From Gammaproteobacteria bacterium (GTDB lineage: Bacteria > Pseudomonadota > Gammaproteobacteria > Eutrophobiales > Eutrophobiaceae), in the NCBI GenBank assembly GCA_965222155.1, contig CBDCTH010000002.1, forward strand, positions 1-21,786: DNA of 21,786 bases, read 5' to 3'. Shown one piece after another: positions 7,301 through 21,786 of the stretch (its first letter is position 1; each line of letters opens with the position of its first letter). The notes under the pieces were generated by a model that had not been told where the DNA came from, searched no databases, and was given only the letters and a program-made list of their open reading frames with translations. Position numbers and translations under genes: made by a program.

Positions 7301-7965
7301 TGGCGGGAGCGATATCCGTGGCAGGCATAACAAGTGACATAAAACACTACGTCAGAACCATACCCGTCTCGGTTGGAGTGGCGGGTCATAACGGCATACG
7401 GTTGAGCCTATACGTGAGTGTCGCGCATGCCATAACCGGCGACATCACGCATGCCAAAACTTTTCTTTTGGACGCGGCGCATGTGATGACTGCCAGGGCA
7501 TCACGCGTCGCCGGATATTCTAGAGTGATCCCGGGCATAATCAACATAACCGGCATGATCAGAAATGAGGGAGAACATGTCATAAAAGCGGCATATGCCA
7601 TATCATCTGCTGTTAGCACCATACGATCCACCATACATATGACGGCAGATGGCATAAGGTTGTCATACGGTGTGGGGCAGTTAAGTTTTCTGGGGCAGGC
7701 CGTTCAGGCGGACTTGGCGATTGGCGTAGACATAAGCAAGGGATTTGCCAAGTATATACGGGAACGGGCGTCCGTGGCTGGCCGCGTCTCGTCTGCCGCA
7801 CAATATGCCCGCAAGATGTTGGAGGACGTACGCATCGTGGCGGGCATGATGCGTACGAATCCCGCGATAGGGGTCTGCGTCATATTTTCACACTCCGCCG
7901 AAGAATGCATAAGCGTCGGCATCACGAAAGAGTCATGCGTAAATACCAGTATAAGAGAAGGATGA
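4306..7965 (+). CDS. Large tail fibre/receptor-binding protein with predicted beta-propeller repeats and a repetitive C-terminal stalk
   Basis: 1219 aa; blade-like motifs (LASGNANPTGIVYHNGRLYV, YYAVDSQTDMIYEYD, LAAGNTAPVSVA...VIDGATDTAYRY); 54-aa internal duplication. Confidence 0.6.
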   Translation: MPLDGTVQLPGIIGSPHAATHIRNFLITLDDADKKIYKSDARYVVSGSISYPNTITLPAGIAGRHPNTYAVLDQSQKKILISEETPFRANFDAEVTCSPDNGRPSGLGTFGYYDIWAHGFSAVKSVAMGKNYIAINGTLNGTQRCYVRHLDGTAYKDFAIDSRHVIAFGYGTDVLYAYGPITTSVDPPPQQLRRGDVTRNPVLTQRWQDARAPQNVIGMAADAYVTLLTDTTIYSYSTSRYISFQSLAHGISGARDVCHLGNATLGILGAEMRIVTANAHLLTISDDIIKVPSGTLHVAGDSGYLTYDGTNIRMFRLRKGFSSFSGITGSRAAIYKGRIIYMSGSDLMEMSADGLTSAKVMTLSGSKAIAVSGNTLYQEDMSTPRIYRYNLVTKAKMTDITVVGLGYNFPIQDLLVTSNGTIYYRSGAEIDRKRPSDLYFKSYHTLAAAVPIFLVGDSIYKYADSGMSGYNSSRIWHKTGTTGVTKVLYTNNHVYVAKSTGWERQSNPGMLWVWPGVDSWVAGDKSTSHVFFYSTVIRNIRIGAQADRLDVAGHHLYVLSGNTISAYDLRDMQAATSLAIDITSPEYVITLAAGNTAPVSVASGPGTIDVIDGATDTAYRYTRTLLTPELVRGSVTVSGATRTATDRYIRDSILFKKAPYHTRSRKLSQIKKAAGVTKHGQSYYAVDSQTDMIYEYDDTLTYRSNHALASGNANPTGIVYHNGRLYVSNVTGATYTIHEYDPVSYLRTATYTVPTAEPIRGLSSRGDWLVMLTDTAIYEYDLSILRKVCDVSVIGRAIHYQYGLYFVLLQARVMAVEPRGAVRASMGFGLVTTKSYAMTGDDTAIYVLDRNDMMYKYEYGSGDDASYDLRKVASDVIGMIGRTQNSAGRYIVTKIGMAADALRGLNLMQTGVISVSTHTKKDLSYIVYVATLIAAKSHSSYGKIMAGAMSITVDVLRDLNLMRSDAMSVSIYVKKDLSYVVYVATLIAAKSHSSYGKIMAGAISVAGITSDIKHYVRTIPVSVGVAGHNGIRLSLYVSVAHAITGDITHAKTFLLDAAHVMTARASRVAGYSRVIPGIINITGMIRNEGEHVIKAAYAISSAVSTIRSTIHMTADGIRLSYGVGQLSFLGQAVQADLAIGVDISKGFAKYIRERASVAGRVSSAAQYARKMLEDVRIVAGMMRTNPAIGVCVIFSHSAEECISVGITKESCVNTSIREG
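7003..7326 (+). repeat. 162-bp tandem duplication inside the large structural gene
   Basis: Copies begin at 7003 and 7165 and share GCCAAGAGTCACTCTTCGTACGGCAAGATTATGGCGGGAGCGAT. Confidence 0.9.
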
Positions 7966-8042
7966 CATGTCAACAAAGTGCAAGGGTCGACGTAATCGTC
8001 GCCTACCTTGGCGTAAATGTCCCGACATAGGGGAAGAATGAC

Positions 8043-8333
8043 ATGGAGTTAGGCGTAAACCCGATCGGCGTGCGACTGGGCATGACGCTCAAGGAGTGCA
8101 ACGTCACCGAGACCATAATAACCGGGTATGCCTCCCAGCACATGATCTTTTACGGCCCAACGGGTCTGAGAATGCAAAAACCCGCGATGTATGACTCCGC
8201 CAAAAAGGAACTATACTATATCACCGCAGACGGTGACCTGACAGACAGGGGAAAATGGGAGTATACCATGAAGTTTACGAAGAACCACCTAACGTTGGAA
8301 GTAGTCACCCGAGTGCTGTTTTATATCGCATAG
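8043..8333 (+). CDS. Small virion protein, Ig-like/BppU-N-like
   Basis: The LYYITADGDLTDRGKWEY motif resembles baseplate upper-protein N-terminal domains; it follows the fibre gene. Confidence 0.5.
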   Translation: MELGVNPIGVRLGMTLKECNVTETIITGYASQHMIFYGPTGLRMQKPAMYDSAKKELYYITADGDLTDRGKWEYTMKFTKNHLTLEVVTRVLFYIA

Positions 8334-8342
8334 GTACGCCCA

Positions 8343-8400
8343 TGCACAGTATGCATACTCTGCATACTCTGCATACTCTGCATACTCTGCATAGTATGCA
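8343..8400. repeat. 9-bp tandem repeat (TGCATACTC x4 plus degenerate flanking copies)
   Basis: TGCA recurs every 9 bp at 8343, 8352, 8361, 8370, 8379, 8388 and 8397. Confidence 0.9.
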
Positions 8401-8420
8401 GTAGATCAGATAGCGGCACT

Positions 8421-8440
8421 CAAAAAGTCTTAATATATGA
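8421..8440 (+). promoter_or_regulatory. Archaeal BRE/TATA-like promoter of the packaging operon
   Basis: AAAAAG followed by TTAATATA, 21-28 nt upstream of the ATG at 8458 (leaderless geometry). Confidence 0.5.
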
Positions 8441-8457
8441 TATTGGTAACATAGGCA

Positions 8458-8868
8458 ATGCGGAGAAAGTCCACGGAATACTCTGAAATCGAAATGGCGA
8501 TAATGACAACCAACTGTCTCGGGATTAGGGGAAGTCAGGCGCTGAGTTGCATCAAGGCGCTAACCAACCAGGAAATAACCGAGGGTACGATGCAAAGGCT
8601 CAGAAAACGGCTGCGAAATAAGGTTGACAGCCAAATATATTCCATCGCCATGAACATGCGCGAATACCACATGCACACGCTGTTTGAGTTGGATCTAATC
8701 AAAAAAGAGATGTGGAAGAATTATGAGTTGGAGACACAGCCGATAAAAAAGACATCAATCCTAAACTCAATCCGTGACATGATCCCGTATATCACGGCAT
8801 ACATAGAAGCGACGCAGCAACTCGTCCAGCAATCCGTCTCGCGTGAACTGGTACGCAAGATGGATTGA
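8458..8868 (+). CDS. terS: Probable terminase small subunit (HTH-like N-terminus, helical body)
   Basis: Lies directly upstream of, and overlaps, the terminase ATPase gene; size and helical character fit. Positional call. Confidence 0.55.
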   Translation: MRRKSTEYSEIEMAIMTTNCLGIRGSQALSCIKALTNQEITEGTMQRLRKRLRNKVDSQIYSIAMNMREYHMHTLFELDLIKKEMWKNYELETQPIKKTSILNSIRDMIPYITAYIEATQQLVQQSVSRELVRKMD

Positions 8869-9713
8869 AAAAGATCATCGCATATCCGTTGATGGCAGAA
8901 TCCAAGCCTGTTCCGCCAGAGACGAGCATGCCTGACGGTTTCTTGGAGTGGAACCAATTTATCGGGATGCCCCTTCACCCGGCCACGTTGCAGCCGGGCA
9001 TGTTTACCAGGGCCCAGACGGAGGTAGCGTCCATGATAGATCCAAAAAAGCCGACGTGGATACACCTCGTAAAGGCCCGCCAATGCGGCTGGACCGAGCT
9101 TTTTTTACGAATCGTGGCGTATAACGGGTTCCACAAGTACAAAAACCGCAAAGTGGGAATAATAGCCGGAACCCGGACAGATACAACCTCGCAGATATTC
9201 GGAAGGCTGGTTGACTTGTTTGACGCAATCCCGGATACGATAGAAGATCAGTCTTCGATGTACCTGCGGCTGCGCACGGGCACTGAATATTACGGGGGGC
9301 CTGCGGCCGTAGAGACGTTTACGGGCTGGACGAAATTTGGGGGCATAATGGCTGACGAGTCCGCAAAATGGAGGTTCACAGACGATCGACCCGTGGTAAA
9401 TTCGCTGTTGCCGCTGGCCCGCAGCAATGCGGCAGACGTGTTCATGCTGTCGACCCCCAACGGGCCGTTTGGCTTTTTTTATGACATAGCGATGCAGACT
9501 TCCCGCACCAATTTTTTGCGCGTATCCTATGACATATGGGCCGGAGGCTCAGAGTTGTACTCCAAAGCACAGATACAGGACATGCTGGATTCCTCAGAAG
9601 AGGATCCGGCGCAAGAATACCTGTGTCAGTTTACCATAGGCCGTGACAGTATCTGGGGCATGCTAAAAGACGAAGACCACACCAATGAGTATAAGGAGGC
9701 CATTTATGCCTGA
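8865..9713 (+). CDS. terL: Terminase large subunit, ATPase domain only
   Basis: Deviant Walker A (KARQCGWT), Walker B (IMADE), coupling motif (STPNG) and QEYLCQF. Confidence 0.85.
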   Translation: MKKIIAYPLMAESKPVPPETSMPDGFLEWNQFIGMPLHPATLQPGMFTRAQTEVASMIDPKKPTWIHLVKARQCGWTELFLRIVAYNGFHKYKNRKVGIIAGTRTDTTSQIFGRLVDLFDAIPDTIEDQSSMYLRLRTGTEYYGGPAAVETFTGWTKFGGIMADESAKWRFTDDRPVVNSLLPLARSNAADVFMLSTPNGPFGFFYDIAMQTSRTNFLRVSYDIWAGGSELYSKAQIQDMLDSSEEDPAQEYLCQFTIGRDSIWGMLKDEDHTNEYKEAIYA

Positions 9714-10350
9714 CGGAATCAGAATATGCGCCTGTGATCCCGGCAAGAGGCGCGACTCATTCGGGCTCGTGTCGCTGTTCGTGGATGTCGAAAAGAATCG
9801 CATATTCGTGGAGTTCGCCAAGAGGTGGCTGCGCAAAGACTACATGTATGTGGAAGAACAGGTCGCGCTGTACCATCAAAAAGCCCATTGGAGTGACATA
9901 TTCGTGGAACAAAACAACACCGGAGAGCATGTCATAGAGATGCTGCGGAAAAAATACGCCCTGCCCGTAAGGGCGGTGACCACCGTGGGAAAAATCACCG
10001 ACCCAAAAAAACACCACAAGCTGAAAACCATGTCAAAGTCGGAGATGGTGAACTGGTTTCTCAAGGCAAAACAGCGGCATATGGTGCTGTTCCCACACTC
10101 GCTTAACGTTGACATGCTTGAGCTAAAACGGCAGATAGCGATATTTGCCGAATATCGCACGGATGCCGGCAACGTGACGTATCACGCCCCGGGAAACGAG
10201 CATGACGACTTGGTGATGGCCATGTTGATCGCGTGCTTTGGGGCGCGCAGGTGGATACGCATAGGATCTGCTGACAACCAACTGGTATGGGGGCCGATCA
10301 CGTATCATGACCCTTATATGGACGAGCTGGGAGAAGTGACATATGTCTAG
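9706..10350 (+). CDS. terL: Terminase large subunit, RNase H-like nuclease domain as a separate gene
   Basis: ACDPG...D, VEQN and HDDLVMA catalytic motifs; has its own SD (AAGGAGG, 9693-9699) before the ATG at 9706. Confidence 0.85.
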   Translation: MPDGIRICACDPGKRRDSFGLVSLFVDVEKNRIFVEFAKRWLRKDYMYVEEQVALYHQKAHWSDIFVEQNNTGEHVIEMLRKKYALPVRAVTTVGKITDPKKHHKLKTMSKSEMVNWFLKAKQRHMVLFPHSLNVDMLELKRQIAIFAEYRTDAGNVTYHAPGNEHDDLVMAMLIACFGARRWIRIGSADNQLVWGPITYHDPYMDELGEVTYV

Positions 10351-11779
10351 TTTTGCGGGGCCCCTGTCAATCACGGACACAGACATTGAAGATCACGTCC
10401 CGCTGCAACAGCTGGTGGCCATAGACGAAAAAACACTCTCTCCGCTTACGGCCGGCGAGCTGACTGCCAGGGTAAATCTTAACAGCATGCCGGAGCTTTA
10501 CCATAACCCGATGCACGAATTAGATTATCGCGTGTACGAGGCGATCGTGACCAAAACACTCGTCGGGAGTCTGATAGACACGCTGGTGCGGTATATAATG
10601 GGCACCGGCTTCCAGCCGGAACTAGAGCTGCTCAACCCCGACGAGGACTCCCAGAAAAACTCCGAAACAATAGAGAACAACCAGGATATAATAACGGCCC
10701 TAAAGTCAATCGACGACCAGATAAGCACTCCGCCCGAAGGGGAACATGACGTAACGTTCCAAATGAAGGTCGCGGCGATGATAACCAGTTGCTTGACTTA
10801 CAACAGAAGTGCCCTGATATTTCAGAAAGAGTCAGGCAGGACGATCAAGGTAAACGGGGTCTTATACCCACAGATACCCACGCACCTGCATTTCGCGCAT
10901 GCCCGGGATCTGGGCATGATAAGGATAAGCCCGGAGACCCGCAGGATGACGGCAGTCGACTGGCGCCATTCGCAACAGATGATCGGGGTAAAGGACATGA
11001 TATACCTATGGAACCCGTCAACTGCCGCCAAGACGCACAATTCATGGTATTACGGCACGTCCATGTTGACTCCGCTAATCAGTTCCGCCAAGGTAATCCG
11101 GCAACTCCTTGCGCAGTCGTTTCCGGCAATGTCGACCAACGCTTGGGCCGGGCTATACCTGTTGGTGGTAAAGAATGACGGGGCGGACGTCAAGGCCAAG
11201 CAAAAAGAGTACGAGGAGTTGGTTGACAAACTTCCCGCCGGCAAAACCAGCATTCTCCTAAAAGACCCCGAAGACACAGAACTGCACAATATACACTTTG
11301 ATCCCAAAATAAGCGAGTTTCAGAAGCTATTGGAAAGTCTGGTAAAGATGTGCATTTCCGTCGTCGGGTTGCCGCATTCGGGATATTATGACCAGGCGTC
11401 TGCCAACCGCGCCACGCTAATCGGAAAGATACAGCTCACGTTGCGCACTGTGATAGAGCCGCTGCGGGAATGGATCTCGCAGGTATTGGAATCGCAATGG
11501 TATATGCGGAATTATCGCCGCATATACCCAGATCGGCAGGACGAGTTCCGCGTTTCGGTCGCATGGAGTGACCTCCACGTATCTGAGTGGCACGACACGA
11601 TAGACTCCATATTGCGTCTGGACTCCAGGGCTCCGCTAAAGGATTCCGATTTCGGGGATCTGGTCGGGCTGCCAGCCTATCCGGGAATGTTGGAGCCGGG
11701 CGGCGAAGTGACCCCGGGAGGCTACACGATGCGAAGCTCAAAAGAGGATGATTCTTCCTCAAAACCCAAGATACCATGA
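10343..11779 (+). CDS. Portal protein
   Basis: 478 aa directly after the terminase; YYGTSMLTP and ISVVGLP...SANRAT motifs typical of portals. Confidence 0.8.
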   Translation: MSSFAGPLSITDTDIEDHVPLQQLVAIDEKTLSPLTAGELTARVNLNSMPELYHNPMHELDYRVYEAIVTKTLVGSLIDTLVRYIMGTGFQPELELLNPDEDSQKNSETIENNQDIITALKSIDDQISTPPEGEHDVTFQMKVAAMITSCLTYNRSALIFQKESGRTIKVNGVLYPQIPTHLHFAHARDLGMIRISPETRRMTAVDWRHSQQMIGVKDMIYLWNPSTAAKTHNSWYYGTSMLTPLISSAKVIRQLLAQSFPAMSTNAWAGLYLLVVKNDGADVKAKQKEYEELVDKLPAGKTSILLKDPEDTELHNIHFDPKISEFQKLLESLVKMCISVVGLPHSGYYDQASANRATLIGKIQLTLRTVIEPLREWISQVLESQWYMRNYRRIYPDRQDEFRVSVAWSDLHVSEWHDTIDSILRLDSRAPLKDSDFGDLVGLPAYPGMLEPGGEVTPGGYTMRSSKEDDSSSKPKIP

Positions 11780-12369
11780 CTCAATGCGACTGCTGCCAAG
11801 AAAAACGCGTCATGCGCGTGCTAAACGGAATACGCTCCCACATGGAGCCCCAGACGCAAATGGTCGTGGAGACGTTTTTGATATCGGACAAGCCGAACAA
11901 ACAGGGCTGGTACACCTCGTGGGACAGCATAGTAAAGAACGCAAAAAGCTTCATCGGGCGGCCCGGGGTATTATACGAGGAATGTGACATGCATGAATGC
12001 AAACTCAAACATCCCTCTACGATAAACCAAGAGAAATACGCAGTATCCCGTATAACGTCGGTCAATCTGGACGAGTCCGCGCATACCGCATACGCCGTAC
12101 ATGAGATCACGGATCCTGCGTTTGCCGTGAAATTGCGTCAGAATGACAACGTATACGTGTCCCCTTCCATTCTTCCGATAAATCAACCTACCCCAATCTA
12201 CAGGATGGACGGCAGCGGATTGGTGTGGAATACGGGAGACTGGTTAGGGCTACACTTGGCGTGGGTCGACAGCCCGGCGTACGGCAGCGTGGCCGGGATC
12301 AGGCGTATTTTGAGCGCGACGACAAAGGAACGCATTGATCGTGTTATCAGTGGTATAAAACGACTATAG
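11776..12369 (+). CDS. Probable prohead maturation protease
   Basis: Follows the portal by an ATGA overlap; PNKQGW, conserved His, VSPS and HLAWVDSPAY resemble HK97/herpes-fold capsid proteases. Confidence 0.6.
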   Translation: MTQCDCCQEKRVMRVLNGIRSHMEPQTQMVVETFLISDKPNKQGWYTSWDSIVKNAKSFIGRPGVLYEECDMHECKLKHPSTINQEKYAVSRITSVNLDESAHTAYAVHEITDPAFAVKLRQNDNVYVSPSILPINQPTPIYRMDGSGLVWNTGDWLGLHLAWVDSPAYGSVAGIRRILSATTKERIDRVISGIKRL

Positions 12370-12385
12370 ACGGTACATCTGCATA

Positions 12386-12454
12386 GGCGTACATACTCTG
12401 GCGTACAAACACGCGACGTACAAACACTCGGCGTACAAATCACGGCGTACAAAC
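12386..12454. repeat. GGCGTACAAAC short direct-repeat array 1 (5 copies, 14-15 bp period)
   Basis: Copies at 12386, 12400, 12415, 12430 and 12444. Confidence 0.9.
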
Positions 12455-12757
12455 GAGGTTATGCCTTCTGTGTTCACGATCATTGAGCGCGTCCACTTGG
12501 CATTCCATTTTCTCAGCGAGCGCGTATCCCTTGGATCCCCATCCGAGGCCCATATGGACAGCATATGCAATCTTTATTATACGGACGTTGCCTTTGCGGG
12601 TCTCCCGGATCGTCTTCGGCTCGTGGTCTGGATCGCACTCAAGAATTGCCAGGTTACGGTATTCTACATGTCTTGAGAACGCACATTTGGACAAAAAAAG
12701 GTATTTACGCGGCCCTAGCGGGAAGGAGCACTGATCGCATCTGGTTATGGTGTCCAT
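12440..12757 (-). CDS. Hypothetical protein, GPRKY family paralog 2
   Basis: Shares GPRKY.FL, NLAI.ECD, I.ETRKGN.RI and LNDRE with 12745..13047. Confidence 0.8.
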   Translation of the reverse strand: MDTITRCDQCSFPLGPRKYLFLSKCAFSRHVEYRNLAILECDPDHEPKTIRETRKGNVRIIKIAYAVHMGLGWGSKGYALAEKMECQVDALNDREHRRHNLVCTP

Positions 12758-13047
12758 ATCTCTCCCTCCCTGATGCTCAGTTCACGATCGTTGAGGCCGG
12801 CTATTTCGCCCTCCATCTGTTGCGCGAGCCGATATCCAAATGATCTGTCGCTGGCGCCTACATAGACGTTATATCTGGCGTCCATTATGCGGGCGTTGCC
12901 CTTGCGGGTCTCTTTGATCATTTGGGGGGTATGACTCTCGTCACACTCGATGATCGCCAGGTTGTAGTACCCGGTATGTTTTGAGGGGGCGGTTTTTTGT
13001 AAAAAAACGTATTTGCGCGGCCCTATTTGGTTTGGTTTTGCTGCCAT
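12745..13047 (-). CDS. Hypothetical protein, GPRKY family paralog 1
   Basis: First gene left of palindrome 1; clear paralog of the next gene. Confidence 0.8.
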   Translation of the reverse strand: MAAKPNQIGPRKYVFLQKTAPSKHTGYYNLAIIECDESHTPQMIKETRKGNARIMDARYNVYVGASDRSFGYRLAQQMEGEIAGLNDRELSIREGEIWTP

Positions 13048-13050
13048 GCT

Positions 13051-13186
13051 TATTATGACGGCATCCTCATATATAAGGATATGTAACTTAATATGTGTAA
13101 ATTGTGATACTATAGATAAGCCTATAGTATCACAATTTACGTATATTAGGTCGCATATCCTTATATACTAGTATGCCGTCATAATA
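13051..13186. promoter_or_regulatory. 136-bp imperfect palindrome, bidirectional promoter 1
   Basis: Perfect arm pairs 13051-64/13173-86, 13070-83/13154-67 (TTATATA box) and 13097-115/13122-40, with a 6-nt centre ATAAGC. The ATGs at 13047 and 13190 are mirror-symmetric. Confidence 0.85.
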
Positions 13187-13189
13187 GAT

Positions 13190-13501
13190 ATGGAAAAACC
13201 ATACATCACGAACACGATCATAACCGCAGAGCCCACATTTTTTGTGGAGACGGGCTTCTGCGGGTCAGCGATCAAAGCAGCCTCCTGGGATGAGGCTATG
13301 AGCAGAGCGGCCGAATATATGGCCGAGTTGTATTACGGTGCCGACGAGCACGAGACACGACGGACCAGCTATACAGTATATCGGCTGCCCGCCGGAACGA
13401 CGATCTGGGACGGGGACGGTATCTCGCCGGCAGATATGCACATCTGCGAGGTGACGGGCGAGTCGCGGGACGCGACGTATTTGGAGGAGGGAGGGATATA
13501 A
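13190..13501 (+). CDS. AASWDEA-family small protein
   Basis: PTFFV...IKAASWDEAMSRAAEY...SYTVYRL...ESRDATYLEE. Confidence 0.8.
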   Translation: MEKPYITNTIITAEPTFFVETGFCGSAIKAASWDEAMSRAAEYMAELYYGADEHETRRTSYTVYRLPAGTTIWDGDGISPADMHICEVTGESRDATYLEEGGI

Positions 13502-13516
13502 CACAACAAGGGATGT

Positions 13517-13797
13517 ATGATCTCTGAGTCCATATTTTTGTTATGTGGGGACTCTTACGGCCTCAAGATCAAAGCGGCCTCCTGGGACGAGGCCATGGAT
13601 AAGGCATTCATACACATGGTCGAGTCCGACTATGAGGATGACGGGCAAGTCGAGTCCGACTATGGGGAACGGAGCGGATCAGCTACAACGTGTACAAGCT
13701 GCCTGCCAGCGTGCATGGCGACTCCTACATTCCGCCGGCCGTCCTGGATGGATGCGAGTCGCGGAACGGGACGTATGTCAGGGGGCGGGAGGCATGA
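13517..13797 (+). pseudogene. AASWDEA-family gene, frameshifted near 13664
   Basis: The N-terminal frame has IKAASWDEAM; the C-terminal family motifs (GTERISYNVYKLP...GCESRNGTYVRGREA*) lie in another frame after a duplicated GTCGAGTCCGACTATG. Confidence 0.7.
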
Positions 13798-14003
13798 CCT
13801 CGTCCACATTTTTTGTGAAAAGCGACTTTTGCGATTCCGCGTTCAGAGCGTCCTCTTGGGACGAGGCCATGGATAGGGCAGCCGAATATGTGGCTAAATC
13901 GTACTACGGAGGTGACGAGCACGGGACGCAGCGGCCCACCTATACAGTATATCGGCTGTCTGACGGATCAGACGGATGTGAGTCGCAGGAGGACGTGCTT
14001 TGA
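13794..14003 (+). CDS. AASWDEA-family small protein
   Basis: MTSSTFFV...RASSWDEAMDRAAEY...TYTVYRL...CESQ; starts at a GGAGGC-ATGA junction. Confidence 0.8.
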   Translation: MTSSTFFVKSDFCDSAFRASSWDEAMDRAAEYVAKSYYGGDEHGTQRPTYTVYRLSDGSDGCESQEDVL

Positions 14004-14072
14004 GGAGGGGGGTTAGGTTCTGACGCGGATTCCATATCTTATAATACTAGACTAATCTAATAATATGCAGTT

Positions 14073-14807
14073 TTGACACTTATAGCAAAGACAAGAGGCT
14101 CCGACGGAATAAAGGCGGTCATGTCTGCGATCTCCACTCTGGTAGAGGAGGCCACGTTTGTGGCCAATGCCGCTGGGATCACGTTCCGTGGCATGGATCC
14201 TTCACACGTGGGGCTGATAGACATTCTGTGGCCCAGTTCCGCCTTTGAGAGGTATGAGTGCGACGGCGACATAAAATTTGGCGTGAGTGTAGACGAGCTC
14301 TTAAAGCTGCTCAAGCGGGCAGGCAAGAAAGACGACATTGAGATAAGCATCTCAGAGAAAAATATGCTTCTGATCGCGATGGGCAAGGACAAAAAGTATG
14401 AGATGCGGTTGATTGAGAGCTCCGTTACGGACTCGCCGCTGCCAAAGGTTACCTTTGACGCAAGGATTGAGATTGATTCTAAGATCTTTAACAGGGTATT
14501 GGGGGATGTGCGTGTCATATCTGATTACATTGTCATATCCGCGACAAAGTCGGGCGCGACATTCTCTGGGACGGGAAATATGGGTAAGGTGACAGTCGAA
14601 CTGGGTGCGGATATAAAGAGTATCGAAGTAAAGACTGACTGCTCCGGGTCCTACAGCCTGGAATATCTCACTCCGTTGGTAAAGGCCGTGGGGGACACAG
14701 CCAAAATCATCACGTGTGAGTATTCAGAGGAACAGCCACTTCGCATAGAATTTATGATAAGGGACGTTAGAATCCACTTTTACCTGGCTCCCAGTGTAAA
14801 CAACTAG
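14073..14807 (+). CDS. pcn: DNA polymerase sliding clamp (PCNA), thaumarchaeal type
   Basis: FRGMDPSHV, YECD, PLPK, YSLEYL, PLRIEF and HFYLAP signatures; TTG start; TTATAATA at 14039-14046. Confidence 0.95.
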   Translation: MTLIAKTRGSDGIKAVMSAISTLVEEATFVANAAGITFRGMDPSHVGLIDILWPSSAFERYECDGDIKFGVSVDELLKLLKRAGKKDDIEISISEKNMLLIAMGKDKKYEMRLIESSVTDSPLPKVTFDARIEIDSKIFNRVLGDVRVISDYIVISATKSGATFSGTGNMGKVTVELGADIKSIEVKTDCSGSYSLEYLTPLVKAVGDTAKIITCEYSEEQPLRIEFMIRDVRIHFYLAPSVNN

Positions 14808-14829
14808 ATATCAGTTATGTATGTATGTA

Positions 14830-14917
14830 TTTGTTTATCTTTACCGGTATAAAGTAAACGTTTGTTTACTTTTACTGGTGTAAAGTAAACGTTTGTTTAT
14901 TTTTACAGCGTTAAAAA
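14830..14917. repeat. 31-bp tandem repeat, ~2.7 copies (TTTGTTTAYYTTTACYGGTRTAAAGTAAACG)
   Basis: Copies at 14830, 14861 and 14892 (partial). Confidence 0.9.
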
Positions 14918-14942
14918 TTTAGCTCATAAGATCAACAAGAAA

Positions 14943-15037
14943 CTTAATAACAATTCATAACATCGCCCGCGTTTCTTAATAACAATTCATAACATCTCCC
15001 ACATTTCTTAATAACATTTCCCACATTTCTTAATAAC
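14943..15037. repeat. CTTAATAAC-core direct repeats x4
   Basis: At 14943, 14975, 15007 and 15029; the first two extend to CTTAATAACAATTCATAACATC. Confidence 0.9.
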
Positions 15038-15290
15038 TTTCCAAATTGCAGGCCCGTGGCATATTGCCAGATTATGATACTATTGTCATACGCGTACAGT
15101 ATATTACCGATTTATTGACATTATTGACATTTATTTCTTGCTTTGTATATATTTTCGAAAAAAGAGAAAGACGTAAAACGCTAATTACAAAAAAGCATAA
15201 CAAAACAACGTCAATAATGTCAATAATGTTGACGTACTTGCTACAATAATATACTCACATCTACCAGGGGCCTGCAATCTTACCAGCCCC

Positions 15291-15417
15291 GGCGTACAAA
15301 CAGGCGTATACTCTGACGTACAAACGCTCGGCGTATACTCTGGCGTACAAACAGGCGTATACCCGGTGTACAAACACTCGGCGTATACTCTGGCGTACAA
15401 ACGCCCGGCGTATACAC
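15291..15417. repeat. GGCGTACAAAC / GGCGTATAC alternating repeat array 2 (10 units)
   Basis: Units at 15291, 15303, 15315, 15330, 15342, 15354, 15365, 15380, 15392 and 15407. Confidence 0.9.
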
Positions 15418-15663
15418 CTACTTTACGCGCATAAAGTCGTCTGGTATCCTGTCAACCATCCTGACCACGTATGGGTATAGTCTGGGATCCATTTCACGCA
15501 CCAAGTATAGTTTTTGGCGGCGTATCTTGTTGGAGCTCGTCAGGGCCCTGATCACGCCTAGTGTGCCCTCATACGCGGTGGCCAACAGCGTTCCGCGATG
15601 GCCTTCGGCGCCAATGCAGAACTTGTTATCGTCCCCCTCAGGCGAGTCGCGGGGGGAGATCAT
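15418..15663 (-). CDS. Small protein with MISPRDSPEG leader, possibly a divergent AASWDEA-family member
   Basis: Identical 10-aa N-terminus to 15660..15983; GGAGGC-ATGA junction. Confidence 0.7.
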   Translation of the reverse strand: MISPRDSPEGDDNKFCIGAEGHRGTLLATAYEGTLGVIRALTSSNKIRRQKLYLVREMDPRLYPYVVRMVDRIPDDFMRVK

Positions 15664-15983
15664 GCCTCCTCCTCCAAATACGTCGCGTCCTGCGACTCGC
15701 AGGTATCCAGGACGAATTGTGAGACGATATCTTTGTTCCAGATCGCCGTCCCGGCGGGTAGCTTATAGACCGTATAGCTGATCCACTGTTCTTCGTATAT
15801 ATCACACGGGTGGTCGGCTTCGGCTATATACTTGGCCGCTCTACTCATAGCCTCATCCCAGGAGGCTGCTCTGATCGTGGTGCCGTCGATGGATCCGAAC
15901 CCAACAAAAAATGTGGACTCATCGGCTATGGTTTTCTGTGGTATGTTGTATTCTCCCTCGGGCGAGTCGCGGGGGGAAATCAT
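15660..15983 (-). CDS. AASWDEA-family small protein
   Basis: ESTFFV...IRAASWDEAMSRAAKY...SYTVYKLP...CESQDATYLEEEA; the ATG at 15983 overlaps the upstream TGA. Confidence 0.8.
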   Translation of the reverse strand: MISPRDSPEGEYNIPQKTIADESTFFVGFGSIDGTTIRAASWDEAMSRAAKYIAEADHPCDIYEEQWISYTVYKLPAGTAIWNKDIVSQFVLDTCESQDATYLEEEA

Positions 15984-16291
15984 TCTTCCCACCCCCAGGC
16001 ATATGTCGCGTCCTGCGATTCGCAGTCCTCTAGGATCTCTAGATATGCGTCGCCTTTGGGATCGACATATACGTCCTCAGGCACCCGGTATACGGTGTAG
16101 CTGACCCATTGGGGCCCGTATTTGTCAGTTACTGTCTCGTTACAGTAGCCTGATTCGAGCATGAGTTTGCGTCCTTTGTTGTGTGCCTCCTCCCAGGAGG
16201 CTGCTTTGATGCTGGAGCGAAAAGAGTAGGCAGTGATAATAAATGTGGACTCTTCGGCTGCGCTTGCGTACGGTATGCTGATTTTTGGCAT
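15980..16291 (-). CDS. AASWDEA-family small protein
   Basis: ESTFII...IKAASWEEA...SYTVYRVP...CESQDATY; first gene left of palindrome 2. Confidence 0.8.
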   Translation of the reverse strand: MPKISIPYASAAEESTFIITAYSFRSSIKAASWEEAHNKGRKLMLESGYCNETVTDKYGPQWVSYTVYRVPEDVYVDPKGDAYLEILEDCESQDATYAWGWEE

Positions 16292-16312
16292 ATGTTCCTG
16301 TACTCGTCCTCA

Positions 16313-16410
16313 TATATAAGGATGTGTAACCTAATATGCGTAAATTGTGATACTATAGATTGTGCTATAGTATCACAGTTTACGCATATTAGGTGACATA
16401 TCCTTATATA
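16313..16410. promoter_or_regulatory. 98-bp palindrome, bidirectional promoter 2 (homologous to promoter 1)
   Basis: 46-bp arms at 16313-58 and 16365-410 (43/46 complementary), centre ATTGTG. The ATGs at 16291 and 16432 are mirror-symmetric. Confidence 0.85.
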
Positions 16411-16431
16411 GCGGGCGAGGTATAGGGAAAT

Positions 16432-16677
16432 ATGTCCAAAACACGCAAACAGCACGCAAGCGCAACAGCCGGAGTTCTTTTTTGTCTACATGACGACTAC
16501 GGCTGTTCCAGCACATTTAGAGCGTCCTCCTGGAAGGACGCGATCACCAAAGTGGCCAAATATGTGGCCAAGATCGACTATAACGTCGACGAGGGCCGTA
16601 TGCAGCGGGCCAACTACAACATATGTAGACTGGCTGCATGCCGGCATGCAGAACACGTTAAGGAGGGGGAGGCATGA
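16432..16677 (+). CDS. AASWDEA-family small protein
   Basis: FRASSWKDAITKVAKY...NYNICRL...EGEA. Confidence 0.75.
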   Translation: MSKTRKQHASATAGVLFCLHDDYGCSSTFRASSWKDAITKVAKYVAKIDYNVDEGRMQRANYNICRLAACRHAEHVKEGEA

Positions 16678-16907
16678 TCTCTTCCTTCCACATAAGCGAA
16701 GCAAAGCCCACATTTTTTGTCGAGACCCGGCCGGATGGCTCTGGGATCCTCGCGTCCTCCTGGGAGGACGCGCTGGCCAAGGCGGCATGCAAGGGCAATC
16801 CCTATCATGAGGCCGACGATCACGGGATGCCACGGATCAGCTACAGTGTCTACAGGATAGCTGTAGCCCTGCAAGATGGCATGCGCACAAAGGAGAGAGA
16901 GGCATGA
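16674..16907 (+). CDS. AASWDEA-family small protein
   Basis: PTFFVET...LASSWEDA...ISYSVYRI...EREA. Confidence 0.8.
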   Translation: MISSFHISEAKPTFFVETRPDGSGILASSWEDALAKAACKGNPYHEADDHGMPRISYSVYRIAVALQDGMRTKEREA

Positions 16908-17080
16908 TCCGCATCCACGAACAGACAATGGCGGGATCCCGCTATCTAGCGGTCAGCGACTCTGGGCACTCCTGCAACTTCCGTGCCCTCTCCTGGGAGG
17001 GTGCGCATAGGCTCGCGATCAAATACCTGGGCGAGCACAATACACAGCCGATCCGATACTGGCTGGAGAGGGAGGCATGA
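16904..17080 (+). CDS. 58-aa divergent AASWDEA-family protein (not in ORF track)
   Basis: Translated by hand: MIRIHEQTMAGSRYLAVSDSGHSCNFRALSWEGAHRLAIKYLGEHNTQPIRYWLEREA; ATGA overlaps at both ends. Confidence 0.75.
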   Translation: MIRIHEQTMAGSRYLAVSDSGHSCNFRALSWEGAHRLAIKYLGEHNTQPIRYWLEREA

Positions 17081-17349
17081 TCACTCCACAAGCAACGCCA
17101 GACTGCCCTCACGGCGAGCACGAGTTCGTGTCCACCGTAGAGCACGAGGGTGGATTGGCGGAGAATCCCGGCACCTGGGGGCACGGTGGCGCATGCGTCA
17201 TCCAGAGTCACTGCGTGCACTGCGGACTCCCGAGAACCGACGACTACTGGGACGACGCCGCCAACCAGCACGTTCCCGCTGGCATCACGTCATATGGCGA
17301 GATACCAGATGACTGGGATTGTGCACACACCGAGGAGGAGGAGGCATGA
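17077..17349 (+). CDS. Acidic Cys/His zinc-binding protein, unrelated to its array neighbours
   Basis: CPHGEHEF...CVHCG; bounded by the same GGAGGC-ATGA junctions. Confidence 0.75.
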   Translation: MITPQATPDCPHGEHEFVSTVEHEGGLAENPGTWGHGGACVIQSHCVHCGLPRTDDYWDDAANQHVPAGITSYGEIPDDWDCAHTEEEEA

Positions 17350-17609
17350 TCTCCTCCGGGTCCACATTTTTTGTCCAGACCGACTCTTACGGCGGCGGGT
17401 TCAAAGCGGCCTCCTGGGCCGATGCCATGACCCGGGCGGCTGAATACATGGCCGAAGCCTACCACAAGGGCGACGGGCCCTGGACGCGGCGGATCATCTA
17501 CACAGTGTATCTGGTACCCGACGGCTGGAGCACGGGCGGCACCATACTGGACACGCTGGACGAGTGCGAGTCGCAGGACGCGATACATATCGTGGAGGGG
17601 GAGGCATGA
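17346..17609 (+). CDS. AASWDEA-family small protein
   Basis: STFFV...FKAASWADAMTRAAEY...YTVY...CESQDA...EGEA. Confidence 0.8.
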   Translation: MISSGSTFFVQTDSYGGGFKAASWADAMTRAAEYMAEAYHKGDGPWTRRIIYTVYLVPDGWSTGGTILDTLDECESQDAIHIVEGEA

Positions 17610-17821
17610 TCTCTCCTCGCGCAACAACCAAGGCCCTCTATGTCGTCCTCGACGAGGCCGGTTGCGTCAGTCTATACTGGACCGCCTCCCGGGGGGAGGC
17701 CCTGCGGCGGGCCACACAATATATCGCTGCGGGCGAATATGGTACCGACGAGTGTGACATACAAATGATCCGGTTCACCATATATCGGGTATCTGCCTGC
17801 CCGCAGGAGAGAGGGTATTGA
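17606..17821 (+). CDS. Divergent AASWDEA-family protein
   Basis: MISPR...TASRGEALRRATQY...RFTIYRV. Confidence 0.7.
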   Translation: MISPRATTKALYVVLDEAGCVSLYWTASRGEALRRATQYIAAGEYGTDECDIQMIRFTIYRVSACPQERGY

Positions 17822-18105
17822 CCCAAATACAGTGGACTCGGTATGCCGGCACCTGGTGCTTATACGTCCCGCGAGTCTGCAACGTCGATCCGGGCGAGCA
17901 GGTGACTGTATGCCGCCGTGACGGCACCACGTCCCTGGTGTGGCTCGGTCAGATCATGGAGGAACTCCCTGGGTATCGCGTGCACGCGGTGGGCGCCGCT
18001 CCGCGACGATCCCGGTGCAGTGATTGTGGCCTCCCAATACAGAGTATGTACAGCCGCTGCCGTGACTGTTATCAGGCGGCACGCGAAGAGTCGTTTGCGG
18101 ATTAG
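17818..18105 (+). CDS. SH3-like beta protein with C-terminal CxxC zinc finger
   Basis: PGEQVTVCRRDG; CSDC...CRDC; TTGA overlap. Confidence 0.6.
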   Translation: MTQIQWTRYAGTWCLYVPRVCNVDPGEQVTVCRRDGTTSLVWLGQIMEELPGYRVHAVGAAPRRSRCSDCGLPIQSMYSRCRDCYQAAREESFAD

Positions 18106-18107
18106 CC

Positions 18108-18117
18108 TTTTTTTTTT
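18108..18117 (+). terminator. Oligo-T archaeal terminator
   Basis: T10 run directly after the last stop codon of the rightward array. Confidence 0.55.
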
Positions 18118-18124
18118 GCTTGGA

Positions 18125-19000
18125 TCCTTAAAATCAGAACCTCTCTTGAAGCCTTGTTGCTTGACATCTGTAACTCCACTCTGGTCTGATCACGTGATAA
18201 TCACTGTACATATCACGGATGTACGGGATGTCGTTGTATGACAGTATCCATTTATCTCGACCATGGAGAATCTTGGCCAAGCCCTCGTGATCAAACCCAC
18301 GGTGCATGTTGCCGTTCTTTCCGTACAGATTGCAATTTTTGAGCGGATACGGGGATCAAGATACAGCGATACTATCCCGTGACCTGCTTATGGAGTCCTT
18401 AAAGTCCATCAATTCAACGGATATGTTTTGCACTCTAAAGTTCGTCACCCGTTCAATCGACGATTCCGTAAACCCGGATGATTCGGCGACATCCCGCATG
18501 AAAGCGTTATCCCCGAAAATGACGACCTGTTCGGCATAAAATATCGCGGCCCTGGATCGGGGTTTTCTTGAGGATCTTGACCGGTTTTGATAATACCCCC
18601 TTATGATCTCTGCCAGTTTTTTTGGGCGGTTTAGGATGCACTGCCAAAACTCTACTAACGGTTTAAAGTTGTCATAACCGTAAACACGTATACCGTGGTT
18701 TGCGCATGCCAGCTCCACTGACCCCCCTCCTAGGAACGGCGAAGCCATCTCTTGGGTATTGTCAGGAATGAAGTTAAGTATTTGCAACACGCCTTTTGAT
18801 TTGCCGCCTGGGTATCTTAACGGTGATCTGGATTTCAATTTCCCGGCCATCTGAAGTCTCATGGCATCTGTTGCACCAAGGCTACTGTATATGCGGTGGC
18901 ATGCATCACATAACCATAACAGGTGCTCGTTCGGGTAAATAAACCATGGATGGAGCCGCACGTTGCTTCGTTTGCATCTTTTGCAAGTACCGCGATTCAC
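18125..19000 (-). pseudogene. dam: D12/Dam-family N6-adenine DNA methyltransferase, multiply frameshifted, with an N-terminal zinc-finger segment
   Basis: PLRYPGGKS and SPFLGGGSVE are intact. NRSSFSG, LYLDP(P)Y and the terminal SREVLI are recoverable only via frameshifts, and FDHE and WILSYND lie beyond an in-frame TGA at 18356-58. The 3' end is approximate. Confidence 0.8.
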
Positions 19001-19083
19001 GGCAGCCTATCGTCCGGGTGATGAAACCATAGCTGGAGCCGCATGCAGCTTCGTTTGCGTCTTTTGCAAGTGCAGCGATTCAT
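18997..19083 (-). CDS. 28-aa mini-ORF, degenerate duplicate of the next gene's N-terminus
   Basis: MNRCTCKRRKRSCMRLQLWFHHPDDRLP versus MNRGTCKRCKRSNVRLHPWFIYPNEHL; ATGA and GTGA overlaps. Confidence 0.5.
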   Translation of the reverse strand: MNRCTCKRRKRSCMRLQLWFHHPDDRLP

Positions 19084-19763: not shown

Positions 19764-20005
19764 ACATTTGTATAATGTTCGTTATATATATACATATTGT
19801 TGTTAAAACTGTAAAAATTACATACAGGTGTCACGCCCCACTGATCCTGGCATGTACGCAAGGCAGTGCGAGGTAGTAGGTAGGTGTGGATCAGGGGGGA
19901 CGTAAACACTTACAAACACTACATATACCGCCTTTTTATAGCTTTAATATGCCGGGCTATGATATCCAGGCCACGACATCAGGGTTTATTACATAGGACT
20001 TACCA

Positions 20006-20386
20006 ATGGATGACATGATCCCAAAAAAGCACAGGGTTAACGCGGCGTTCCGCACGGGAGTCGACGCGCTGGAAGATCTGTGCGGATACGTGCTGCGCGG
20101 GAACGACGTGCGAGCTCACAAGCAGAAGGCAATCGTGGAACGATGCGTCACGGGCATAATGGATTGTCTGGCCGAAGTGCCTGCCACTCCCATGTATAGC
20201 CCGGAAATGGGCAAAGGTGGCCAAATGCTGCCCCTCTGCGGCTACTGCACGGAGAGTGACGGGGTAAATATAAAATCCTCAAAGTACGCCGATACGGACG
20301 AGCCGACGCACCTTTGCAACAAATGCTGCACATCTACCACGGAGATGGCAGCGAGCAGCATAGACCTGACGCATTACCGGGGGTGA
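20006..20386 (+). CDS. Hypothetical protein with CxxC...CxxC
   Basis: 126 aa; LCGYC and LCNKC; TTTATTA at ~19985. Confidence 0.6.
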   Translation: MDDMIPKKHRVNAAFRTGVDALEDLCGYVLRGNDVRAHKQKAIVERCVTGIMDCLAEVPATPMYSPEMGKGGQMLPLCGYCTESDGVNIKSSKYADTDEPTHLCNKCCTSTTEMAASSIDLTHYRG

Positions 20387-20576
20387 TGACATAACCACAA
20401 AAAGCAACACCATACCCAGACGGGCCGTGAAGGGTCTTTGCAGTTGGTGCCATACGTCCAACGTTAGTATCGTGATACGAGGCGACCATAGCGTCTGCCT
20501 GCCGTGCATAAAAAAGTACAAGGGTATTAATGGATACCTCTCGTACCAGGCAGCCCAAGGCGGTCAGGATCGCTAG
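20386..20576 (+). pseudogene. Zinc-finger ORF lacking an in-frame canonical start (KGLCSWCHTSN...VCLPC)
   Basis: Open frame from ~20370 to the TAG at 20574-76. The ATG at 20386 after GGGGGTG is out of frame, implying either a frameshift or an ATA start at 20391. Confidence 0.45.
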
Positions 20577-20624
20577 GTATACCGGCATGCGCCATTTTAA
20601 TACCACGGGATCAACATACATCTG

Positions 20625-20939
20625 ATGGCCGACATTAGACTAGACGAGACCACGCTGATCCTGACCGTCCCGGCAGACGATACCGAGCTTATGGTGTCTG
20701 ACGTATCCGAGTCCCAAGACGGGAGAAAAGTCAAGAAGATCACGCTGGCAAACCTGATCAAGATACTCGACGGGCCGCAGAAAATGCAAATACAGACGAG
20801 CCATCCGGCCGTCCCCAACGGCTCCGATTACAACCTGATTTACGCTTATTCACCGGGCGTGGATCAGGACACGCAGGTATACGTGGCGCTCCGGCAGGCC
20901 GACGGCACGTATACAAACAGCGAGGTGCGCGTTGCCTAG
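20625..20939 (+). CDS. Probable virion protein (fibre N-terminal-like, DDTELMVSD...KKITLANL)
   Basis: The D..l.v.D....KK.T..nl motif is common at the N-termini of phage fibre proteins. Confidence 0.55.
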   Translation: MADIRLDETTLILTVPADDTELMVSDVSESQDGRKVKKITLANLIKILDGPQKMQIQTSHPAVPNGSDYNLIYAYSPGVDQDTQVYVALRQADGTYTNSEVRVA

Positions 20940-21786
20940 ATATGCCAAGATCGGCGTCGGGCATTATGCCGGGCAGTCATGGTACGACAAGCCCGAAACC
21001 GACTCTGACGCGGACGTGTCCAAGACGCTCCTTGAGCGTGACACCGGCAGGCACTTTATCCTATACGAGGGCGACTTTTGGAACTTCCAAAAGTATGAGG
21101 AGTCCATACGCAACGAGCCAAACTTTGATCATCAGCACAGGCCGTCCCAGCACCGGCAACTCGGCGACTCGCTGTCACGGGCCGTCCTGCGGTTTTGTTG
21201 GAGGCTCGACGGCGTTGACACCGACATTGACGACTTAAACTCTCTGTCACTCACCACCAACCCAAGCTGGCCCCGCTCAGAACTGTACCCGTTCCGGGGC
21301 GAAAAGTCATTCGCATTCAACGGCACGAACCACGGCGAGGTGTCGTATCCCGACTTTGACGCGACCGAGGGGTTTTTGATCGGGGGCTGGTTCAAGACGA
21401 TCAGCGAAGCGGAGTCAACCATATTCAAGTATCGCGACGGCGCCGGCGCCTACGTGGAGGTGGCAATGAACACGACGGCAGGCAAGATAGAGGCCACCGT
21501 ATCCGGGAGCGGCGGCAGGAACGCCGACGCGCCAGAAGTGGACATAACCGACGACAGGTGGCATTACGTGGGAGTGATGTACGACGAGCGAACGGGCGAC
21601 ACGTACCTCATAATCGCCACACGATACGAAATAGAGTACTTTGCAAAATTCAAGGCGGGCGGAATGTGGAATTTCACCCCGGTAAACGGCAAGCTCGTGC
21701 TGGGCGCCGGATATGACGGCTCCGCGACGGAGGACAATTTTATCGGGCAGGCAAAGAATTTCAGCGTGTACAAGCATCCTGACATT
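20932..21786 (+). CDS. LamG/concanavalin A-like domain virion protein, 3' truncated (not in ORF track)
   Basis: TTG at 20932 with SD GAGGTG; frame open to the window end. FAFNGTNHGEV, IGGWFKT, ITDDRWHYVGVMYD, LVLGAG and NFIG..NFSVY form a LamG-like pattern. Confidence 0.8.
   Translation, partial: MPRYAKIGVGHYAGQSWYDKPETDSDADVSKTLLERDTGRHFILYEGDFWNFQKYEESIRNEPNFDHQHRPSQHRQLGDSLSRAVLRFCWRLDGVDTDIDDLNSLSLTTNPSWPRSELYPFRGEKSFAFNGTNHGEVSYPDFDATEGFLIGGWFKTISEAESTIFKYRDGAGAYVEVAMNTTAGKIEATVSGSGGRNADAPEVDITDDRWHYVGVMYDERTGDTYLIIATRYEIEYFAKFKAGGMWNFTPVNGKLVLGAGYDGSATEDNFIGQAKNFSVYKHPDI

Follow-up and report, generated by a model that had tools for sequence, protein, structure and literature searches.

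The window analysed here is the whole of contig CBDCTH010000002.1 (21,786 nucleotides (nt); hereafter C2), one of 12 contigs in assembly GCA_965222155.1, which is assigned to the Gammaproteobacteria. Twice and in the same orientation (12386–14003 and 15291–18117), it carries a module composed of a repeat array, a leftward operon, a long palindrome and a rightward operon of small genes. Between the two modules lie pcn, the gene for a PCNA sliding clamp (14121–14807, plus strand), and an AT-rich repeat region. Two other contigs of the assembly, C3 and C5, come from variant strains of one and the same virus: C5 matches C2 positions 5482–12368 at 99.2% identity, and C3 matches positions 19958–21786 at 100% identity, with mosaic identity in between. 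Based on these variants and on contigs from public metagenome runs, we propose as the more probable account that the modules form a hyperplastic region of accessory genes in an uncultured tailed virus, most likely archaeal; ordinary recombination at conserved joints would shuffle this region, which lies beside a probable replication origin. An earlier note on this DNA had described the doubled architecture and its position around pcn and a candidate origin, and had read it as a candidate undescribed diversification system. The arrays, palindromes and overlapping small genes were all found; what the note observed holds, and its interpretation finds partial support.

Divergent operons of small coupled genes

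Leftward operon 1 (12440–13047, minus strand) consists of a pair of GPRKY-family genes, 12745–13047 followed by 12440–12757, as noted previously. Rightward operon 1 (13190–14003, plus strand) comprises three AASWDEA genes (13190–13501, 13517–13797 and 13794–14003), the second of which is broken in C2 by a 17-nt duplication that is missing in C3, C5 and the contigs of three of four metagenome runs. In the second module, leftward operon 2 (15418–16291, minus strand) reads through two AASWDEA genes (15980–16291 and 15660–15983) into a gene for an 81-amino-acid protein (15418–15663), and rightward operon 2 (16432–18105, plus strand) contains seven genes starting at 16432, 16674, 16904, 17077, 17346, 17606 and 17818. 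The product of 17077–17349 is cysteine-rich (Cys-rich) and that of 17818–18105 is zinc-ribbon-like. Just past the last stop codon of this operon, a run of ten T residues (18108–18117, plus strand) is a likely terminator.

A profile of the AASWDEA family gave 11 matches, corresponding to ten genes, on C2. AASWDEA genes had been reported on the left side of module 2; this holds for the two genes of leftward operon 2 but not as a confinement, since the family also occurs to the right of both palindromes. Paralogous genes of the two modules are 62–85% identical in stretches. Orthologous cassettes are under purifying selection, with ratios of non-synonymous to synonymous substitution (dN/dS) of 0.05–0.52 in nine of ten pairs, the tenth pair being identical.

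Internal genes meet at a joint of about 20 nt, GGAG(G/A)-n-GAGGC-ATGA-(T/C)C, which combines a Shine–Dalgarno site with an overlapping stop/start and is conserved in five of the six junctions of rightward operon 2. The joint 9-mer GAGGCATGA has 16 copies on the viral contigs (C2, 7; C3, 5; C5, 4), always at gene joints of the modules; elsewhere in the assembly there are 17 copies in 4.5 Mb.

Repeat arrays and a candidate replication origin

The arrays were located with Tandem Repeats Finder and a mismatch search. Array 1 (12386–12454, plus strand) consists of five GGCGTACAAAC-type units spaced 14–15 nt apart and occupies the gap between the convergent late gene 11776–12369 and leftward operon 1. 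Array 2 (15291–15417, plus strand) has about ten units, GGCGTACAAAC alternating with GGCGTATAC, at spacings of 11–15 nt. The arrays had been described as standing at the ends of the leftward operons, and their units were found there. A consensus core, GGCGTAYA, is common to both modules. Allowing up to two mismatches, GGCGTACAAAC has 15 matches in the window, compared with 5.9 ± 2.3 in shuffled sequences (none of 100 shuffles reached 15), and 11 of the 15 fall in 12386–12454 and 15291–15417, all on the plus strand. All three variants keep array 2, in which the exact GGCGTAYA core occurs 8, 13 and 9 times. Array 1 is dispensable, because unrelated sequence takes its place in C5 and in the independent metagenome run X4. 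The non-coding scaffold that the earlier note took to be constant is so in part only: C5 lacks array 1, and the palindrome is rebuilt there.

The AT-rich repeat block next to pcn (14808–15044) contains 31-nt repeats (2.5 copies, 14830–14906) and 32/22-nt repeats (14943–15037). It is followed by a candidate origin core (15045–15278), in which nested inverted repeats (15045–15064/15259–15278 and 15112–15139/15199–15226) enclose a 59-nt AT-rich centre, with one copy of the palindrome half-site described below at 15075. The 265 nt from 15026 to 15290 are the most conserved non-coding stretch, being 99.6% identical in C3 and 98.1% in C5; the flanks are 82–95% identical between variants. The direct repeats to the left of the core and array 2 to its right differ in copy number among the variants.

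Known counterparts are the iteron-type origins of plasmids and phages and those archaeal origins in which an AT-rich unwinding element is enclosed by inverted repeats. The stretch between the modules resembles these in its AT-rich centre, nested inverted repeats and copy-variable direct repeats beside replication genes, and it joins an AT-rich unwinding region and flanking tandem direct repeats to an adjoining pcn, as in an iteron origin. Given the conserved nested repeats, the adjoining pcn and a D5-like primase-helicase encoded on C3, we read the core, which three kinds of direct repeats including array 2 flank, with modest confidence as a probable origin with iteron-like protein-binding sites, array 1 being a dispensable second copy of the array near this putative origin.

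Alternatively, the GGCGTAYA arrays may be boundary elements of the leftward operons, acting as protein roadblocks or terminators that bar early transcription from the origin and the late genes, or they may be packaging (pac) sites, rather than origin iterons. Each array sits precisely where a leftward operon has its 3′ end, both have the same orientation, and array 1 fills the convergent gap between early and late genes just downstream of the terminase–portal block. However, the arrays carry no T-run of the archaeal-terminator type on the transcribed strand, array 1 is dispensable, and array 2 abuts the most conserved non-coding core. We consider a boundary or packaging role less likely.

Palindromes as candidate divergent promoters

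Palindrome 1 (13044–13193) has arms of 72 nt (13044–13115/13122–13193) that are 85% complementary, and palindrome 2 (16259–16464) has arms of 100 nt (16259–16358/16365–16464) that are 79% complementary; their lengths are thus 150–200 bp, with 6-nt centres. They share 104 nt at 89% identity (13064–13167 and 16307–16410), in agreement with the homologous palindromic element of about 100 bp described before, and are also mutual inverted repeats (98 nt, 87% complementary). Additional copies are present on C3 (one) and C5 (three), with none elsewhere in the 4.5-Mb assembly. As a DNA hairpin, palindrome 1 folds with −46.3 kcal/mol (z = −12.3; none of 200 shuffles was as good). Searches of both palindromes against Rfam returned only sub-threshold plant and animal microRNA hairpin models, that is, generic hairpins. 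This strongly folding element sits between outward-facing putative promoters.

Palindrome 1 contains TTATATA at 13070–13076 (minus strand) and at 13161–13167 (plus strand), with inverted half-sites GTGATACTATAG at 13104 and 13122. In palindrome 2, TTATATA is found at 16313–16319 (minus strand) and 16404–16410 (plus strand), the half-sites are at 16347 and 16365, and the arms reach into the first codons of both flanking genes. Across C2, C3 and C5, the centre of TTATATA lies 25–26 nt 5′ of the A of the start codon in nine of ten palindrome arms; in the tenth arm, which heads a gene remnant, it lies at 29 nt. Archaeal promoters have a TATA box centred near −26, and their first genes are often leaderless. 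The first genes beside the palindromes have no Shine–Dalgarno sequence, and no sigma-70-like site was found within either palindrome. On this geometry, the palindromes appear to be divergent pairs of archaeal-type TATA promoters. As the first genes start about 25 nt past the TATA box and have no ribosome-binding site, they are probably leaderless.

When five copies of the palindrome were aligned (a sixth, from C5, was excluded as an exact duplicate of palindrome 1 of C2), the half-site cores GTGATACTAT and TAGTATCACA proved invariant, as did the right-arm TTATATA; four of the five also have the TATA box of the left arm. The inverted half-sites GTGATACTATAG between the TATA boxes probably bind a dimeric regulator.

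The palindromes might instead be primarily DNA structures, such as cruciform or hairpin origins or break-prone recombination hot spots, and promoters only secondarily. Near-perfect symmetry over 150–200 bp and very stable single-strand folding would suit such a role. In addition, as direct and inverted repeats, the palindromes could allow the 3.1-kb segment with pcn and the candidate origin to invert or be exchanged, with the genes keeping their promoters. Yet the parts that are invariant over the five copies are the TATA boxes and half-sites of 9–12 nt, and the half palindrome of C5 still heads a gene. The start-to-start spacing of the half-sites varies (19, 21, 31 and 37 nt) and therefore suits the operator of a dimeric protein better than an obligatory hairpin. 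Among the 15 of 29 metagenome joints listed, there is one opposite-strand joint, and it lies away from the palindromes. A mainly structural role is accordingly improbable, and we retain the palindromes as candidate promoters.

Gene order and content differ among variants

Turning to the evidence for exchange, the right operon of module 2 reads 16432, A, B, Cys, D, E, Zn in C2 and X, Y, Cys, A, B, E, Zn in C3, where A to E, X and Y denote cassettes, Cys the Cys-rich gene and Zn the zinc-ribbon-like gene. C3 thus has two genes that are not in C2, and C2 has genes that are not in C3. In C5, the operon reads as a GPRKY-type gene, frameshifted and with its own half palindrome and TATA box, then a further AASWDEA gene, then B. 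The C5 GPRKY-type gene (positions 10628–10912 of the reverse complement) is split over two frames by the frameshift; before it stand the half palindrome and what is left, ten codons, of a first gene of AASWDEA type. On the left side of module 2, there are two AASWDEA genes in C2 and one each in C3 and C5; the left gene that they share has two different heads, MISPRDSPEGEYNIPQK where it is internal (C2) and MEKYSIPQK where it is adjacent to the promoter (C5).

Five of the six boundaries of the C2/C3 similarity blocks lie within 21 nt of a joint or operon end. The synonymous divergence (dS) of orthologous cassettes differs widely between neighbours: it is 0 for A, 0.14 for B, 0.24 for Cys, 0.13 for E and 0.49 for Zn, with 0.04 for PCNA.

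In four public runs of three studies, the region is represented piecewise by numerous short contigs of variant sequence (150–1079 nt, mapped at 85% likeness), and their joints come back at cassette borders. A joint 17086>17356, by which the Cys-rich gene is replaced, occurs in three runs, and a joint 16429>13188, which places palindrome 2 before a first gene of module-1 type as in C3, likewise in three. The joints 15696>16020 and 15607>15944 each delete one left gene. These contigs demonstrate standing diversity, not the rate or mechanism of change. Fixed gene order and content would have pointed to a static region; instead, C3, C5 and the metagenome contigs have genes that are permuted, missing, extra or re-headed.

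One old segmental duplication followed by slow divergence would have left a static multigene family with no ongoing exchange. The modules do share ancestry, as seen in their palindromes and paralogues, and purifying selection on the orthologues is equally in keeping with a static family. However, order and content vary among the three variants assembled together as well as in contigs of three studies, a dS of 0–0.49 between adjacent cassettes is impossible for clock-like divergence of one linked block, and the agreement of C3 and C5 with independent runs speaks against assembly chimeras. The mosaic of dS among neighbours therefore rules out one old duplication with linked divergence, and a static family is very unlikely.

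We see hardly any likelihood in a dedicated site-specific cassette system of integron or shufflon type, with its recombinase encoded by the host or in a stretch of the genome missing from the assembly and with the joint or palindrome as its site: the uniform joint at cassette boundaries, the breakpoints at joints and promoter–gene borders, and an incomplete viral genome (C2 and C3 share no end overlap) could all be accommodated, but no tyrosine or serine recombinase was found on about 35 kb of non-redundant viral sequence, the joint is fully accounted for by the Shine–Dalgarno site and the overlapping stop/start, breakpoints vary in their exact base, and paralogue-to-paralogue deletions (15696>16020) resemble homologous recombination. 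As the earlier note had remarked for the window, no recombinase gene is evident: across the assembly, Phage_integrase (PF00589) has six matches and Resolvase (PF00239) three, all outside C2, C3 and C5.

Viral source and likely host

Besides PCNA, the gene content of C2 includes a terminase (two open reading frames, ORFs), a D12 methyltransferase and a PD-(D/E)XK nuclease. The three viral contigs total 55.9 kb, the remaining assembly being 4.5 Mb, and the contamination figure of the bin is 7.28%. The 16S rRNA of the assembly is bacterial and no TATA-binding protein (TBP) was found in it, so C2, C3 and C5 are foreign to the bin. The pcn product matches Pfam models PCNA_N (6e-17) and PCNA_C (1.6e-15), and solved PCNAs in the PDB match it down to 1.5e-39. 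The PCNA_N model has matches in four of four archaeal and none of ten bacterial control genomes; in the assembly, it is matched on C2, C3 and C5 only. In our reading, these contigs most likely derive from a tailed virus with an archaeal host, which binning placed with a bacterium. One virus was thus assembled as three contigs inside a bacterial bin.

No tRNA genes were found. A comparison of the viral contigs with the rest of the assembly gave no spacer-like matches, and counts of 4-mer palindromes, taken as a measure of restriction-site avoidance, were unremarkable.

A model of shuffling by ordinary recombination

We propose that each module is a divergent transcription unit in which a palindrome would provide two outward TATA promoters with regulator half-sites between them. 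The first gene on each side would be leaderless, and the later genes would be translationally coupled through the conserved joint (GGAGG-n-GAGGC-ATGA-TC). The cargo is small orphan genes, mainly the expanded AASWDEA family with its ten copies, and also GPRKY, Cys-rich and zinc-ribbon-like genes. Whole genes may then be moved, duplicated, deleted and re-headed at the joints by homologous or short-homology recombination, be it inside a single genome or between strains that co-infect. Because the palindromes, joints and paralogues repeat the same sequences many times, ordinary recombination suffices and no dedicated recombinase is needed. Neither a dedicated system nor the undescribed diversification system of the earlier note is supported, as everything seen fits ordinary recombination at conserved joints.

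Several points weigh against this model. Because alignment blocks tend to stop at the limits of conservation, the coincidence of breakpoints with joints is to some extent a product of the comparison itself, and translational coupling and common descent alone may account for the conservation of the joint. Paralogues and the short sides of the metagenome contigs could create some false joints. The comparison covers only three DNA variants, with no relative found in IMG/VR, JGI metagenomes, GTDB genomes or GenBank phages. PCNA and the promoter geometry are indirect pointers to an archaeal host. Finally, the irregular spacing of 11–15 nt and a second array that is dispensable and lies 2.9 kb away, at another operon end, set the arrays apart from iteron origins and fit classical iterons poorly.

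Comparison with known systems

In T4-type phages, motifs of about 100 bp known as PeSL (promoter-early stem-loop), each a promoter with an inverted repeat, are clustered among small orphan genes; where close relatives differ by an insertion, deletion or replacement, the change maps to these motifs, and the shuffling is ascribed to recombination between repeats without a dedicated enzyme (Arbiol et al. 2010, PMC2839356). The analogy with PeSL regions made in the earlier note fits the behaviour of the viral region, in which a repeated motif of similar size (104 nt, 89% identity) lies within variable orphan genes and differences between close relatives fall at the palindromes and joints. Unlike in PeSL, the putative promoter is an archaeal-type TATA box with no sigma-70 site, one palindrome serves a divergent operon pair rather than each gene having its own motif, and most cassette borders are stop/start coupling joints, not promoters. 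As its inverted repeat lies between putative divergent promoters, the palindrome would also not be a transcribed terminator, in contrast to PeSL.

A further counterpart by description is the haloarchaeal tailed virus HGTV-1, in which a TATA-like box and an inverted repeat are reported to precede most left-arm ORFs, a motif proposed for transcription control and PeSL-like shuffling (PMC3950731). Both are tailed viruses, of archaeal type in our case by the evidence above, with a repeated motif of TATA box and inverted repeat. The HGTV-1 motif stands before most single ORFs, whereas here two large palindromes head multi-gene coupled operons, and shuffling at the level of the population is seen directly.

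As in integrons, one promoter region would express a row of promoterless small cassettes of variable order and content. An integron-like array, to which the earlier note drew a loose analogy, is nevertheless not supported: no intI-type integrase is present on C2, C3 or C5, no attC-like imperfect inverted repeat lies between the cassettes, breakpoints are not at a fixed base, and neither repeat array flanks cassettes. Shufflons and other invertible-segment systems differ likewise, as no serine or tyrosine invertase was found on the viral contigs. The region works in a PeSL-like manner but is neither PeSL nor an integron.

Cassette families and a fused relative

The two small-gene families are rare, with 7 and 6 clusters (6 for GPRKY) in 5.8 billion proteins, and the AASWDEA profile recovered 22 representatives in 1.84 billion proteins. 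The earlier note had pointed to IMG/VR for relatives of the palindrome; a scan with the palindrome core, the PCNA and the GPRKY alignment found none there. The GPRKY alignment gave no confirmed relative in GTDB genomes or JGI metagenomes, GenBank phages gave no match by DNA or by the 478-amino-acid protein encoded at 10343–11779, and the AASWDEA profile matched none of 60 relatives of the bin. Against Pfam, PHROGs and NCBIfam, the cassettes returned nothing at or above cut-off, and two PDB profile searches with cassette queries returned 0 matches.

AlphaFold2 (AF2) models were moderately confident, with predicted local distance difference test (pLDDT) values of 81.8 for GPRKY and 78.8 for the second model; with Foldseek, neither had a PDB match at E ≤ 0.001. 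Wide searches with VIA-align reached best Z scores of 4.6 and 4.7, under the stated background of the tool; some small phage inhibitors (T7 Gp2, AcrIF9 and Gp1.2) appear in these sub-background lists, from which no inference is drawn. Best scores in the ESM Atlas were 0.79 and 0.82, to be taken as leads only. A HicB-like fold, guessed from the sequence pattern, was dropped, as it appeared in none of the match lists. That the cassettes act early, against host functions or defences, as the earlier note held probable, is a guess, plausible by analogy.

Among distant relatives, six of 13 representatives inspected from the 22 (P0018, P0022, P0024, P0031, P0034 and P0035) have a fused form, a single protein that carries a Cys-rich domain behind an AASWDEA domain. 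This Cys-rich domain is homologous to the product of 17077–17349, with 58% identity to P0022. The ESM Atlas clusters closest to the fused relative, again a lead only, are archaeal (Nitrososphaerota) hypothetical proteins. In alignment, the linker of the fused proteins (..ATHVERPTEPECPHG..) covers the place where the separate AASWDEA proteins end (..HIVEGEA, stop) and the Cys-rich protein begins (MITPQATPDCPHGE), and the coupling joint therefore occupies the position of the interdomain linker of the relatives. A complex prediction for the AASWDEA and Cys-rich proteins scored 0.02 and gave no verdict. As a speculative and rather unlikely possibility, the AASWDEA genes could be the detached and multiplied N-terminal half of a two-domain viral protein, such that about ten exchangeable N-domain paralogues are shuffled at the joint of the old linker around a single kept Cys-rich subunit.

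Other features of the viral contigs

Several further features lie outside the modules. The large terminase is encoded by two ORFs, the ATPase part at 8865–9713 and the nuclease part at 9685–10350; the latter has its own Shine–Dalgarno site and ATG. Because the sequence is identical in C5, this is probably a true split gene rather than a sequencing error. The terminase is preceded by a 136-amino-acid gene (8458–8868), and just 5′ of this gene is a perfect tandem repeat of TGCATACTC (4.7 copies, 8352–8393) that could be a packaging or regulatory site. The 5′-open ORF at the left end (1–1285) contains internal repeats of about 190–260 nt with units GSGSSSW..NDIDDVD.LYF, and a 1219-amino-acid ORF contains a 162-nt tandem duplication (7003–7317, 85% identity); the two ORFs probably encode fibre or tail proteins that have repeat domains.

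To the right of module 2, the D12 adenine methyltransferase gene is interrupted in C2 (18134–19000) and intact in C3 (5962–6885, 307 amino acids). C3 also carries a 1.6-kb insertion (4363–5981) directly behind the T-run of operon 2, which encodes a thymidylate kinase and a C5 cytosine methyltransferase and is missing from C2. A 34-nt segment of C2 (18551–18584) is 100% identical to the thymidylate kinase gene carried by C3 only and looks like the scar of an earlier rearrangement. An 83-nt tandem repeat (1.9 copies, 83% matches) spans 18927–19082, where the methyltransferase gene meets that for the PD-(D/E)XK nuclease.

Implications

Shuffling of accessory genes at regulatory repeats is well documented for T4-type phages; for archaeal viruses there are only hints of it. 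Here, joints, gene families and population-level rearrangements are all visible within one 6-kb region, and the border of a cassette is the stop/start coupling joint and not a promoter motif alone. Such regions break assemblies, as the three-contig outcome for this virus illustrates. The fused form links the expanded AASWDEA family to a Cys-rich partner and thereby provides a testable hypothesis for these orphan genes. If the two-domain interpretation were true, the viral population would carry combinatorial specificity subunits for one effector, for example against variable host defences, and the palindromic operator would set the timing of their expression.

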